Assembly (NCBI GenBank): GCA_964016885.1
Contig: OZ024741.1
Span: 152,706,001 to 152,770,000 of the forward strand
Source: Eledone cirrhosa
Lineage: Eukaryota
DNA: 64,000 bases
Direction: 5' to 3'
Positions within the stretch are counted from its first letter, which is position 1; each line of letters opens with the position of its first letter. The notes beneath the pieces are model-generated. The model was not told the origin of the DNA. It made no database searches and saw only the letters and a list, made by a program, of their open reading frames with translations. Positions 26,785 through 61,519 of the stretch are shown in pieces. A program made the position numbers and the translations under genes.

Positions 26785-27790
26785 TATGGAATAGAATGAA
26801 ACGAAATTTCATTTCTCACTCTTAGTACGGCACTTATTTAAATGTAAGTATGTATGTATACAGACGTACAGTAGTATGTATATATACATACATGCACACA
26901 TATATATATGCACGTATCGGTTTACCTAACATTTATTACAATGCTCGGTTTGTCCGTTTGTAAACAAACAAACATCCCAAATTACGCCGTACAGTGTTTA
27001 GGCAAACACGTCACCTTTTTGTTCAACACCGACACCGGAACGATGTACTAGTTTCAAGCTTATTAGCTATCGTCAGCATCGTATACCTTCCTGCCAGATG
27101 GTTGAACGTCTGAAAGTATATACTTTCCTTATGCATATTAACGTCTGAGCAGCCTAATTTGCATATCGAGTGAGTTCAGTCGGCCGCGCACACCGAAAAC
27201 GATAAATGGAATAGAATGAAACGAAATTTCATTTCTCACTCTTAGTACGGCAGTTACTTAAATTTAAGTATGTATGTATACGTAGATACATATATGTATA
27301 CAGACGTACAGTAGTATGTATATATATATACATACATGCACACATATATATATGCACGTATCGGTTTACCGAACATTTATTACAATGCTCGGTTTGTCCG
27401 TTTGTAAACAAACAAACAGCCCGAATTACGCCGTACAGTGTTTAGGCAACCACGTCACCTTTTTGTTCAACATGCATAAGGAAAGTATATACTTTCAGAC
27501 GTTCAACCATCTGGCAGGAAGGTATACGATGCTGACGATAGCTAATAAGCTTGAAACTAGTACATCGTTCCTGTGTCAGTGTTGAACAAAAAGGTGACGT
27601 GGTTGCCTAAACACTGTACGGCGTAATTCGGGCTGTTTGTTTGTTTACAAACGGACAAACCGAGCATTGTAATAAATGTTCGGTAAACTGATACGTGCAT
27701 ATATATATGTGTGCATGTATGTATATATATACATACTACTGTACGTCTGTATACATATATATATGTACGTATACATACATACATACTTAT
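26785..27790. mobile_element. Hammerhead-containing 420-bp tandem monomer (retrozyme-like) with inverted arm
   Basis: Period 420 (26788->27208); inversion from ~27472. Hammerheads at 27041-27081(-) and 27527-27567(+). Homologous to 58470-60700. Confidence 0.8.
27527..27567 (+). ncRNA. Minimal type I hammerhead ribozyme
   Basis: Stem I cgatg/catcg; CTGACGA; stem II agct/agct; GAAAC-ta-GTA with palindromic stem III actagt. Identical inverted copy at 27041-27081. Confidence 0.85.
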
Positions 27791-28359
27791 ATATATATAA
27801 AATTTAGTACAGCATCAACGAAGCCATGGTTGCAGCCAAGATAACGAATGCAGTTTCGATATATATATATATATATATATACATATATATGAGTATATGG
27901 GTGTGTGTGTGCATGAGTGTATTATATATATAACTACATTGAAATATATTGTATCATATATAACTACATTCAAACATAAATTGAACAAGGCCAATCTGTC
28001 GAAAACAATCAACGGTGAGAATTTGAGCGAAACGTTAAAATCTTTTACACATAAACGGACACACACACACACACACACACACACACACACACACACACAC
28101 ACACACACACACACACAACATACACATACTTAAACACAGAGGCAAAGCCATCAGAACGTCGGATAGAATGATTTGTGATATTTGTTCTTTGCTCTCTGAG
28201 TTCAAATCCCATCGAGTTCAATTTTGCATTTTATTCCTCCGAGGTCGTCACAATATAGTACCACTAAAGTACTGGGTTCAATTTAATCGACTAACCCACC
28301 CCACAAGTTTCTGTCTTTGTGCCTAAATTAGAAGCCATTATTTCTCTTGTAGATGTACA

Positions 28360-28590
28360 CATGGCTGAATGTTTATAAACCCGCCTTGCTGCCAAGTTCG
28401 ACGGGATTACTTGATCTCATCGAAAAGTGTCTTTACCATAGCTTCGGGTCGATGAAATTATGAAATTGGACTGATGGAAAAGTGTGGAAGCGCGCTGGGT
28501 GGCGATTCTACCTGTAATTCAAAAGTCCAGCCTTGTCACATACTGTATAACGCCGATCTCCCTAAGAATTACATTAAGAAAATATAGTGT
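28360..28590 (+). mobile_element. Old degenerate SINE-like repeat
   Basis: Shares acctgtaattca...agccttgtcac and accatagc motifs with 29810-29960(-) and 54440-54610(-). Confidence 0.5.
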
Positions 28591-28655
28591 GCACGTATTG
28601 TATCCTGTATCTTTGTCCTGTTTTCAAGAATAAAATATGTTTAAATACCTCGCTA

Positions 28656-29366
28656 CTAAGCAAAGATGGGAAATGACCCACGTATGTAATACACAGCTAC
28701 ATTAAACACAACCTCAAGGATATGGTCCGAACGTGGAAGTGCCGAACTCTCACTGTCATCGCCTCCATCTCTCTCGCCTTCCCCATCTCTCTGTATGGTG
28801 AGCAAATGGGGTCCCACATGCTGGCCTTCCCACAGCCCCGGCGGACAGAATAGAGAAGGCGTTTCCCCGGAGGATGGTAAGGGAGATGCGCTGGAAGTGC
28901 CATTCCAATTTGCGAGGCTCACACCTGCTCTGGACAGCTCAGCGCCTATGGTGATGAGTAGGGAGATAGCCCTAGGGCCAAGGCCACCAGAAGATTCCAC
29001 TGCCAAGGGCACGACCGCAAACCTGTCGGAGAGCGACCAGTACTTGAAGAGTTTGACCTCCTCAGCCCGACGTGCAGCAGAACCTGGGTTAGTCGCAGAC
29101 TGCACCAGGTTGCGGCTGGAGAAAGTGTCGCTGCAAGTGGCATCCCAGACGAGGGGTTTGCTACCGCGGAACGAGAAGATGGTCATACCGTCTGGCCTTT
29201 TGCCGTCCCCTCGATCCAGCCCCACCGGCTCGAGCTGGGAGAGGAAGCCTGCAGCATCTAAGCCGTGCTTTATGACCACGGTGGATCTACAGCGACATTT
29301 ATGTGGCTCGCAGATCCGGAGGCCAAGCCTCATGGAAATGCCGATGCGCAGGCTATCGTTATCCAA
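28656..29366 (-). pseudogene. CRE-clade non-LTR retrotransposon C-terminal RLE fragment
   Basis: RLGLRICEPHKCRC, LEPVGLDRGDGKRPDGMT, LVWDATCSDT, AEEVKLFKY, PLAVESSGGLG. Confidence 0.8.
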
Positions 29367-58609: not shown

Positions 58610-58617
58610 ATGCAAAT
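58610..58617 (+). promoter_or_regulatory. Octamer motif ATGCAAAT (putative snRNA-type distal element)
   Basis: Exact octamer 88 nt before CTGATGA; same spacing (88-93) in four other monomers of two families. Confidence 0.5.
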
Positions 58618-58692
58618 TAGGTTGCTCAGCCGTTAATTTTCATAAGGAAAGTATATACTTTCGAACGTTCAACTATCTGGCAGATGGGTATA

Positions 58693-58733
58693 CGGTGCTG
58701 ATGATAGCTAACAAGCTTGAAACTAGTACATCG
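58693..58733 (+). ncRNA. Minimal type I hammerhead ribozyme
   Basis: cggtg-CTGATGA-tagctaacaagctt-GAAAC-ta-GTA-catcg; second copy at 59264-59304. Confidence 0.85.
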
Positions 58734-61519
58734 TTCCTGTGTCAGTGTTGAACAAAAAGGTGACGTGGTTGCCTTAACACCGTACGGCATAAAAATTCAG
58801 GCTTTTCAGTTTGTTTACAAACGAACAAAGCGGCGTTATAATAAGCGTCCGCTAAACTGATACGTGCATATATGTATGTGTACCTGTATGTATATATGTA
58901 TGTGTGTATATATATATATGTATATATATATATATATATATATATATATGTATATATATATATATATATATATATATATATATATATATATATATATATA
59001 TATATATATATATATATATATATGCATGCTACTGTACGTCTGTATACATATATGTATGTACGTATACACACATACTTACATTTAAGTAAGTGCCGTACTA
59101 AGAGTGAGAAATGAAATTTCGTTTTCATTTTGTTTCAACTTATCGTTTTCGGTATGCCTGACCGACTTAGTTCACTCGATATGCAAATTAGGCTGCTCAG
59201 CCGTTAATTTTCATAAGGAAAGTATATACTTTCGAACGTTCAACTATCTGGCAGATGGGTATACAGTGCTGATGATAGCTAACAAGCTTGAAACTAGTAC
59301 ATCGTTCCTGTGTCAGTGTTGAACAAAAAGGTGACGTGGTTGCCTTAACACCGTACGGCATAAAAATTCAGGCTGTTCAGTTTGTTTACAAACGAACAAA
59401 GCGGCGTTATAATAAGCGTCCGCTAAACTGATACGTGCATATATGTATGTGTACCTGTATGTATATATGTATGTGTGTATATATATATGTATATATATAT
59501 ATATATATATATATATATATATATATATATATATATATATATATATATATATATATATATATATATATATATATATATGTATATATATATATATGCATGC
59601 TACTGTACGTCTGTATACATATATGTATGTACGTATACACACATACTTACATTTAAGTAAGTGCCGTACTAAGAGTGAGAAATGAAATTTCGTTTTCATT
59701 TTATTTCAACTTATATATATATATATATATATATATATATATATATATATATATATATACATATATGCACACACACACACACACACACACACACACATAT
59801 ATATATATATATATATATATATATATATATATATATATATATACCATATATATATATATATATATATATATATATATATATATATATATATATATATATA
59901 TATATATATATATCTATATATATATATATATATATATATATAAGTTGAAATAAAATGAAAACTAAATTTCATTTCTCACTCTTAGTACGGCACTTACTTA
60001 AATGTAAGTATGTGTGTATACGTACATACATATATGTATACAGACGTACAGTATATATATATGTATATATATATATATATATATATATATATATATATAT
60101 ATATATATATATATATATATATATATATATATATATATATATATATGTATATATATATATATGCATGCTACTGTACGTCTGTATACATATATGTATGTAC
60201 GTATACACACATACTTACATTTAAGTAAGTGCCGTACTAAGAGTGAGAAATGAAATTTCGTTTTCATTTTATTTCAACTTATATATATATATATATATAT
60301 ATATATATATATATATATATGTATATACATATATGCACACACACACACACACACACACACACACACACATATATATATATATATATATATATATATATAT
60401 ATATATATATATATATACCATATATATATATATATATATATATATATATATATATATATATATATATATATATATATATATCTATATATATATATATATA
60501 TATATATATAAGTTGAAATAAAATGAAAACTAAATTTCATTTCTCACTCTTAGTACGGCACTTACTTAAATGTAAGTATGTGTGTATACGTACATACATA
60601 TATGTATACAGACGTACAGTATATATATATGTATATATATATATATATATATATATATATATATATATATATATATATATATATATATATATATATATAT
60701 ACATCGTATATTAGAAAGTTTTCGCCACGCAAGCTTTTTTAAGCCTATCAAATAATAGACGTTACACCGCCCAGTCTGTCTTCCTGTATCACCCCTTCCT
60801 ACCTTTTCTATGACACCCCGTCATTTCGCTTTGCCTGTACGTTGGACTGTAGTCCATATATATTTTCTATTTCTCTCCTTTGACTAAGCTACTAGGCACT
60901 GTTTCCATCTCTCTCTTCCTTTTCAGTTGAAGTCATTTACTTTGTAGCATTTTTGCTTTTTGTTTTCGTCTTAATGTCTGTAATTCGTCGAAAGACATAA
61001 CACATCCTGTCTCTACCTGTTTTGTTGTGTCACAATGTATACTGAAATGAATAGTACCATGCTTGATATACTGTAACTATAGAGATTTCCAGAGGCTGAC
61101 TGAAGAGAAAGTACTGTCCGTTCCTGTGCGCCCATCTGTTTTGTATACACACACACACACACACACACACACACACACACACACACACACACACACACAC
61201 ACACACACACACACACACACACATATATATATATATATATATATATATATATATATATATAATAAAAGTATGTGTTCCTACACGTAAATAATACACATAG
61301 GGATACAAGTATAGTCCGACCGTATGCAAGTGTGGTTCAATGGCAAGTTAATAAATTAACAAGCCAGAACATATAAAATCAAGGGAAAGCAAATAAAGAA
61401 AAGATTTCAAAAAATTCAGCGTACTTAGAGGATCTCTTTCTTTATTTGCGAGGATCTTTTTCTTTATTTACTTTCCCTTGATTTTATATATGTATATATA
61501 TATATATATATATATATAT

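Follow-up and report, generated by a model that had tools for sequence, protein, structure and literature searches.

We have analysed a stretch of 64,000 nucleotides from Eledone cirrhosa (assembly GCA_964016885.1, contig OZ024741.1, positions 152,706,001 to 152,770,000 of the forward strand; this whole stretch is called the window hereafter), in which two families of tandem repeats, A and B, carry a type I hammerhead ribozyme and, upstream of it, the octamer ATGCAAAT. The arrangement of the motifs makes it probable that these repeats are retrozymes without long terminal repeats (non-LTR retrozymes), that they bear an internal promoter of the small nuclear RNA (snRNA) type, and that they are copied by Penelope-type reverse transcriptases (RTs) from a predicted circular or multimeric RNA. 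They combine the octamer with motifs resembling a proximal sequence element (PSE), both matching the promoters of the host, and hence likely drive their own transcription, RNA polymerase II (Pol II) being favoured over Pol III. Mobilisation in trans, by way of the circular or multimeric RNA, also appears likely.

The pattern octamer-N70-100-CTGANGA-N8-24-GAAA was found 36,072 times in the 3.0-Gb genome and 28 times with the reversed control; after removal of the main A and B classes, 2,095 matches were left, versus 18 in the control. Candidates numbered 1,743 for family A and 3,088 for family B, and among the best 40 candidates the identity to the query was about 99% in A and mostly 90-92% in B. 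The same search delivered four further families (C, D, E and H) and a fifth, F, which is doubtful and may be unrelated to the others; families C to H were all found by requiring the octamer. Unit lengths range from about 325 to 470 bp (571 bp where the TA tract is expanded) and arrays comprise 1 to about 29 units. Family H has units of 466 bp, of which about 29 near-identical ones, with an inverted 5' arm and a (TA)n insertion site, form one array at L253-L254 (G000:C1:5738332-5751968).

Families A and B had been described in a first-pass annotation of the window as having no obvious similarity to each other, a statement which is overturned here. Compared directly by blastn, A and B give no match; when the segments between octamer and ribozyme are aligned, 49 of 84 nt are identical (z 4.9, equalled in 0 of 500 shuffles), and family D matches both families by blastn (A-D, 69% over 175 nt; B-D, 70% over 122 nt). 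Judged from these alignments, A and B are distant homologs within a single large superfamily that numbers at least six related families. The octamer shared by A and B was therefore inherited and conserved, and an independent, convergent origin has been ruled out.

Octamers and units in the window

All spacings are counted from the octamer to CTGANGA, from upstream to downstream. The window contains five exact octamers, at 27164 (minus strand), 31486 (plus), 39113 (minus), 58610 (plus) and 59181 (plus), at the places first assigned to them. The spacings are 88 nt (27164 to 27076 on the minus strand, and 58610 to 58698), 92 nt (39113 to 39021 on the minus strand) and 93 nt (31486 to 31579). The fixed spacing also holds for the fifth octamer (59181 to 59269), at a measured 88 nt in place of the earlier figure of about 89. 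The number of octamers is at chance level (5 observed, mean of 5.25 in shuffled sequence), so only their placement is non-random, and the count was dropped as evidence. Moreover, the five copies sit in repeated DNA and are not independent of one another. The loci are given below, the predicted transcription start (+1) positions being derived from the spacing in the host U1, U2, U4 and U5 genes.

26788..27472, minus strand: direct arm of family A, subfamily A2; about 1.6 units of 420 bp; the 3' end at 26788 enters (TA)n
27157..27164, minus strand: A2 octamer ATGCAAAT, then TAG
27092..27148, minus strand: A2 promoter-like segment; PSE-core-like TCAGA at 27148, TATA-like TATATA 26 nt further on, predicted +1 at 27092
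27040..27082, minus strand: A2 type I hammerhead core; CUGACGA at 27076, predicted cleavage after GUA at 27046
27470..27788, plus strand: back-to-back inverted arm of family A; hammerhead at 27532, predicted cut after 27562; without octamer; ends in (TA)n
31196..31291, minus strand: inverted arm of family B copy 2; ends in (TA)n
31285..31600, plus strand: family B copy 2; octamer at 31486-31493, PSE core at 31502, incomplete hammerhead at 31579
38804..39268, minus strand: family B copy 1; 1.33 units of 348 bp; the 5' end adjoins an RTE-like RT fragment
39040..39113, minus strand: promoter-like segment of B copy 1; octamer at 39113-39106, PSE core TCAGT at 39097, predicted +1 at 39040
38981..39027, minus strand: type I hammerhead of B copy 1; CUGAUGA at 39021, stem III of 3 bp, predicted cleavage after GUC at 38987
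58322..59713, plus strand: array of family A, subfamily A1; about 2.4 units with a 571-bp period and internal (TA)n; 5' boundary approximate
58610..58728, plus strand: A1 unit 1; octamer at 58610-58617, PSE-core-like TCAGC at 58626, predicted +1 at 58682, hammerhead at 58698, predicted cut after 58728
59181..59299, plus strand: A1 unit 2; octamer at 59181-59188, PSE-core-like TCAGC at 59197, predicted +1 at 59253, hammerhead at 59269, predicted cut after 59299
59940..60620, direct and inverted: short A1 3'-end fragments, locally duplicated among (TA)n tracts

The periods of 420 bp (26788 and 27208), 571 bp (58698 to 59269) and 348 bp (38804 and 39152) were confirmed, as was the non-coding nature of the monomers, whose longest ATG-initiated open reading frame (ORF) spans 33-54 aa in eight family monomers. 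A fourth A hammerhead, at 27532 on the plus strand in the octamer-less inverted arm, had been overlooked by the first-pass annotation, and the ribozyme that it placed at 31579 is not intact but breaks off after stem II at a (CA)n(TA)n tract. B copy 1 has a degenerate extra repeat of the octamer unit upstream, near 39146, and the 3' end of the A1 array consists of CAACTTAT running into (TA)n. The hammerheads at 58698 and 59269 are the sole same-strand pair of ribozymes in the window. At the loci starting at 26788 and 38804 (about 1.6 and 1.3 units) there is one ribozyme per direct arm, so that release of a monomer by two cuts is impossible there.

Promoter motifs and host snRNA genes

The host promoters used for comparison come from the U1, U2, U4, U5, U6 and U6atac loci (U3, U7, U11, U12, 7SK, RNase P and RNase MRP were left out). 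When one mismatch is allowed, all four distinct U6/U6atac promoters have the octamer at -76 to -78, and none of the 14 U1/U2/U4/U5 promoters has it there. In 20 U6 loci, the octamer position is occupied by an exact copy twice and by ATGCTAAT ten times; the octamer is displaced by an insertion in six loci and lacking in two. All 14 host Pol II snRNA promoters contain a YCAG core at -55 to -58, followed in most of these genes by a TATA-like run about 24-30 nt past the core, and 13 of the 14 contain AATTA at -88 to -91. A distal motif resembling TTACCTCCCTT is present at -257 to -288 in 10 of 18 promoters (L061-L124, L205-L206, L271).

A 14-nt PSE-core matrix was built only from the host U1/U2/U4/U5 promoters and 54 offsets were ranked with it. 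The peak lies at octamer +16, which ranks first in A, B, C and D and second in E; there is no peak at this place in U6, and the fit of family F (L141) is poor (rank 8 of 54). Among control octamers, 8 of 51 have YCAS at +16, and all 8 are, by eye, decayed family members. With a 37-nt host Pol II matrix, the B sites rank 4 (39097) and 28 among 127,926 window positions. The search for a PSE with host promoters, which had been proposed as a check in the first-pass annotation, gives a strong match for B and a weak one for A, with octamer +16 as the best offset in A to D. The dinucleotide AG is found at octamer +9/+10 in 14 of 17 family representatives, as it is in the U6/U6atac promoters, and YAG is found 54-58 nt past the PSE core, where the host spacing puts +1, in 12 of 16. 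Most families also have a TATA-like motif. In both A and B the predicted +1 is the A of GGCAG, 47 nt (A) and 54 nt (B) ahead of the predicted cut. In the study of newt satellite 2, the 5' ends of ovarian RNAs were reportedly located about 47 nt ahead of the cut, and the promoter reportedly combined an octamer with a PSE.

The octamer unit is duplicated in family B, 20 of 23 copies having two to three octamer-like units, and also in some copies of E, apparently as a separate event. A 3'-box-like AAAAACTCAGA near the end of B resembles the 3' flanks of U1 and U2; it is not evident in the other families and lies within the copies. For the snRNA-type promoter suggested in the first place, the host genes provide a matching octamer position and PSE core, the weak side being the PSE of A. 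As far as the motifs tell, the layout is a hybrid, with a U6-like octamer and with a PSE core and spacing like those of Pol II genes; a gene with exactly this layout may exist among the host snRNA-type genes outside the set compared.

The same elements and the same promoter might be read by Pol III as a U6-like type 3 promoter, to which we assign a low probability. The proximal octamer marks the U6/U6atac genes and not the Pol II snRNA genes of the host, a TATA-like motif is present in most families, and the stretch past the predicted start is free of T4 runs for 420 (A1), 305 (A2) and 237 (B) nt, all of which would suit Pol III. However, the PSE core fits the Pol II genes and not U6, the distance from octamer to TATA is about 5 nt shorter than in U6, and T4-T5 runs, which would hinder the release of monomers, precede the second ribozyme of A, B and H and are also encountered early in D and E. 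Newt satellite 2 is in addition reported to have a Pol II snRNA promoter (cited in PMC2220036).

Ribozymes, insertions and Penelope-like elements

Every intact copy adopts a type I hammerhead fold in which stem I is long and bulged, and the triplets expected at the cleavage site, GUA in A and GUC in B, are recovered in the folded ribozymes. The assignment to type I made in the first-pass annotation stands, whereas its term "minimal" does not: stem III comprises 3 bp in B and, in A, a single pair with a CUAG palindrome in the loop. The base of stem II is U-U in A and A-A in B. Across 17 representatives, pairing is observed in 77 of 102 cells of stem I and 46 of 51 cells of stem II, with many two-sided changes, in a comparison where the shuffle control ignores relatedness and 3 of the 17 representatives pair poorly. 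Palindromic stem III loops are found in A and H (ACUAGU), D and F (ACAUGU) and C (AUGCAU); a palindromic stem III is expected with dimeric cleavage (PMC6155905; PMC7229834). Circularised monomers fold better than their shuffles (40 shuffles), with z values of -3.9 for A2, -6.4 for B and -10.1 for A1, the latter being inflated by TA tracts. No RNA source was listed among six sequencing runs; contigs from four runs gave cover in one run, a single contig in another and none in two, an outcome that carries no information on transcription, RNA ends or circles.

Among the matches listed from an Rfam scan of the window (150 of 171), the A and B ribozymes are absent; one weak hammerhead of another family is present at 22000-22070 and most matches are microsatellite noise. 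The octamer was found upstream of 0 of 30 hammerheads picked by Rfam, all of one family from the termini of Penelope-like elements (PLEs), and of 0 of 6 other window hammerheads examined. On the former count, the octamer was rejected as a trait of all hammerhead repeats in this genome. Further octamer-less hammerhead families are located in the window at 11901, 14654, 15196 and 22054.

Back-to-back inverted arms are present in 16 of 27 non-overlapping A loci, and 12 of the 27 have at least two same-strand ribozymes within 3.3 kb; consecutive complete ribozymes are also found in H arrays. The terminal A1 ends at the 3' hairpin stop in 20 cases out of 21 at one U-rich site, followed by AT-rich sequence or (TA)n. 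This common end is located 37 nt ahead of the next octamer position, far from the ribozyme cut, and B and H have several alternative U-rich ends. Besides being truncated at their 5' ends, the copies extend across the ribozyme cut and retain DNA that precedes the predicted start. Since the ends are far from the cut and the copies run across both the cut and the DNA preceding the start, the template would be a circle or an uncleaved multimer, two possibilities between which the variants shared within arrays do not distinguish. Back-to-back inverted arms have been described for PLEs (PMC8557442), and the insertions studied here look Penelope-made. The retrozyme interpretation of the first-pass annotation is supported in this respect, the inverted arms, the ends at (TA)n and the 5' truncation forming a Penelope-like pattern.

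Another reading keeps the promoter as real and takes as template an uncleaved linear multimer ending in a (UA)n flank, circles being absent or irrelevant and long arrays growing by DNA recombination. We regard it as unlikely, although several observations would suit it: the common 3' end could come from master loci, long arrays have no array-wide private variants, the A ribozyme has a weak stem III and U-U at the base of stem II, and 8 of 9 Xenopus dimers tested failed to cleave (bioRxiv 10.64898/2026.07.22.740005). On the other hand, hammerhead pairing is conserved across the families, and the retrozymes of mussel, coral and axolotl accumulate mainly as circles (PMC7229834). The several U-rich ends per family fit internal priming, without separating circles from multimers.

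Three PLE families are present in the window. The first, at 18383-20878 (plus strand), with 17139-18429 and 20969-21857, has a near-intact ORF (832-aa stop-free stretch, RVT_1), inverted 5' terminal repeats and a variant hammerhead-like UUGAUGG...GAAA in its terminus. The second, at 40481-44460 (minus strand), has its ORF in two frames and a terminal repeat carrying the hammerhead 40667; related copies are located at 50771, 35947 and 35718. The third, at 61500-63998 (minus strand), 13052-13944 and L248, carries the hammerheads 61788 and 13686 and continues past the window as a large inverted duplication.

At five junctions (L178, L275, L015, L148, L219) the 5' part of a retrozyme is joined directly to the 3' part of a PLE, and four of the five involve the clade of the window PLE at 44366, whose terminal repeat includes the hammerhead 40667. 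Such junctions are what template switching by the RT of a PLE of this clade would leave, which makes the clade a candidate partner. At L275 (G000:C19:7531494), a B copy fused to a PLE terminal repeat has a copy of U6atac next to it in back-to-back orientation, and other U6atac copies (L272, L273) lie at AT-rich or (TA)n tracts; these copies suggest that the same RT retroposes snRNAs.

It had been considered from the start that the monomers might simply be pseudo-LTRs (pLTRs) of coding PLEs. In about 160 loci of about 36,000 units, no ORF with RT and GIY-YIG was found flanked by them. A version of this idea, in which the monomers are pLTRs of a yet-unseen coding PLE that uses the snRNA-type promoter for its mRNA, the arrays being by-products of truncated tandem insertion, is quite improbable in our view. 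The insertion anatomy is PLE-like, Xenopus retrozymes resemble the pLTRs of coding PLEs (bioRxiv 10.64898/2026.07.22.740005), and the sample is small relative to the number of units. Nevertheless, each of the PLE protein matches near loci of families A to E (1/30, 6/30, 5/30 and 2/30) is either a fragment, or on the other strand, or set apart by termini of its own. A true pLTR did come to light in a sample of this kind, the hammerhead family of 22054 flanking a PLE ORF as direct repeats at L249. Pure arrays reach about 29 units, and compared with six resident PLE termini the monomers have only microsatellite-like or very short similarity.

Other repeats of the window include RTE-like and other non-LTR retrotransposon fragments at 39312-40055 (minus strand), 3126-6527 (minus) and 44942-47734 (plus), the first of which is joined directly to the 5' end of B copy 1. 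At 7693-11422, two related minisatellites abut, one with 24 copies of a 64-bp unit and the other with 44.5 copies of a 51-bp unit, and a near-perfect inverted repeat at 34266-35575 has 633-nt arms that are 99% complementary and 44 nt apart.

Proposed cycle and comparison with known systems

Several points weigh against an active internal promoter and a circular template. The families are homologous, so that their shared offset reflects one origin and conservation and not six independent tests, and families C to H were ascertained through the octamer itself. In 30 E copies chosen by the ribozyme alone, many of them 5'-truncated, an exact octamer is present at 87-93 nt in 6, of which 3 had helped to design the search pattern, and within 170 nt in 12. 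The comparison of the octamer with neighbouring columns, proposed in the first-pass annotation, gave no excess conservation in these E copies, as is expected of neutrally decaying copies. The TATA-like motif lies within a hairpin and the predicted +1 within the extended stem I, so that RNA structure could account for part of their conservation. The layout matches no compared host gene exactly, the distance from octamer to TATA being 40-44 nt versus 46-48 nt in U6/U6atac, and the host distal motif (about -260) is present in 0 of 8 monomers. With the 37-nt matrix, the A PSE scores only -7.7 to -9.8 (ranks 3,120-6,101, top 2.4-4.8%), below every held-out host promoter (-4.3 to 17.7). Unit differences are 5.2 inside arrays and 4.7 between arrays, which does not favour circles over linear multimers, and the chimeric junctions between retrozymes and PLEs could be deletions.

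On this basis the motifs might be inherited relics or RNA-level elements, and the repeats might be transcribed solely when a promoter outside them reads through, which is the general proposal for retrozymes. This reading is favoured by the weak A PSE, the overlap with hairpins, the decayed E copies and the statement of a 2020 review that metazoan retrozymes seem to lack promoters (PMC7761336). We give it very little credit, as the exact octamer, NAG and YCAS at +16 are kept although the families are no more than about 55-60% alike here, as these motifs match the promoters of the host, and as the octamer unit was duplicated in B and in E.

In the cycle that we consider probable, the octamer (ATGCAAAT-NAG) and the PSE/TATA-like element next to it would be bound by the snRNA factors of the host, and the RNA would start at CAG, about 16-25 nt ahead of the ribozyme core, preferentially by Pol II. 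In arrays of at least two units the transcript would enter the next unit, and the tandem hammerheads, probably cleaving as dimers formed through their palindromic stem III loops, would excise a monomer as in other retrozymes, which an RtcB-type ligase would close, again by analogy with them. The monomer extending from cut to cut would hold the promoter of the next unit. If monomer excision holds, the upstream promoter is by this anatomy heritable. The endonuclease and RT of a PLE would then introduce nicks at (TA)n targets and use internal U-rich sites for priming, with the outcome seen in the copies: one to many units inserted, truncated at the 5' end and often inverted.

A broader proposition, which we hold only as a doubtful extension, is that an snRNA-type promoter driven by SNAPc and POU factors is a general and ancient engine of retrozyme expression in animals, shared with newt satellite 2. 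Cutting by the ribozyme and circularisation would capture the promoter in the RNA, and the families, competing in promoter strength by octamer duplication, would together make abundant circular RNAs.

Animal retrozymes yield abundant circular RNAs, and the snRNA-type promoter of the newt has so far stood alone. In the present genome the signature is borne by about 36,000 units from several families and can be aligned with the host U1-U6 promoters. It supplies a predicted start base, two motifs open to mutation and a PLE clade as candidate partner, which makes the question of retrozyme transcription directly testable. If true, the cycle is a way round the rule that retroposed copies lose their upstream promoters. 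Its confirmation in retrozymes of mussel, coral or axolotl would unify the expression of the group, while its restriction to this lineage and newts would indicate convergence.

A literature search detected no paper combining retrozyme, promoter and octamer, or hammerhead, satellite 2, octamer and snRNA, older primary papers being outside its coverage; a search on Penelope, hammerhead and octopus gave none on such elements, as judged by titles and the start of abstracts. Own promoters are known for other hammerhead repeats: schistosome Sm-alpha has a Pol III promoter (cited in PMC2220036) and the plant retrozyme NbRZ1 a Pol II promoter in its LTR (PMC12029980), neither of which is of the octamer-PSE snRNA type found here. 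The pLTRs of PLEs and their non-autonomous derivatives (PMC8557442; bioRxiv 10.64898/2026.07.22.740005) share with the window elements partial tandems, 5' truncation, inverted 5' arms, microsatellite targets and hammerheads. The latter source describes non-autonomous hammerhead elements derived from PLE termini, and its text contains neither "promoter" nor "octamer". In contrast to pLTRs, the units studied here have no ORF, no coding partner with the same terminus was detected in the loci sampled, and the resident PLE-terminal hammerheads examined are without octamer.

As described in PMC2220036, newt satellite 2 is also a hammerhead tandem repeat with an internal snRNA-type promoter and dimeric cleavage. 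The elements of Eledone cirrhosa differ from it by at least six diverged families, by recent insertions, dispersed in the genome, that target (TA)n and show inversions of the PLE type, and by their hybrid layout, with a U6-like octamer, a U1/U2-like PSE core and repeated duplication of the octamer. They are closest in composition to the metazoan non-LTR retrozymes (PMC7229834), which are likewise non-coding tandem units with a type I hammerhead, present in thousands of copies, with self-paired circular folds and co-occurring with hammerhead-bearing PLEs. The A ribozyme resembles the axolotl types described there by its palindromic stem III loop and the U-U at the base of stem II. The difference lies in the internal snRNA-type promoter signature, the word "octamer" being absent from the main text of that paper. 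In every trait of non-LTR retrozymes that could be compared, the window elements agree with this group, and the promoter is what differs.

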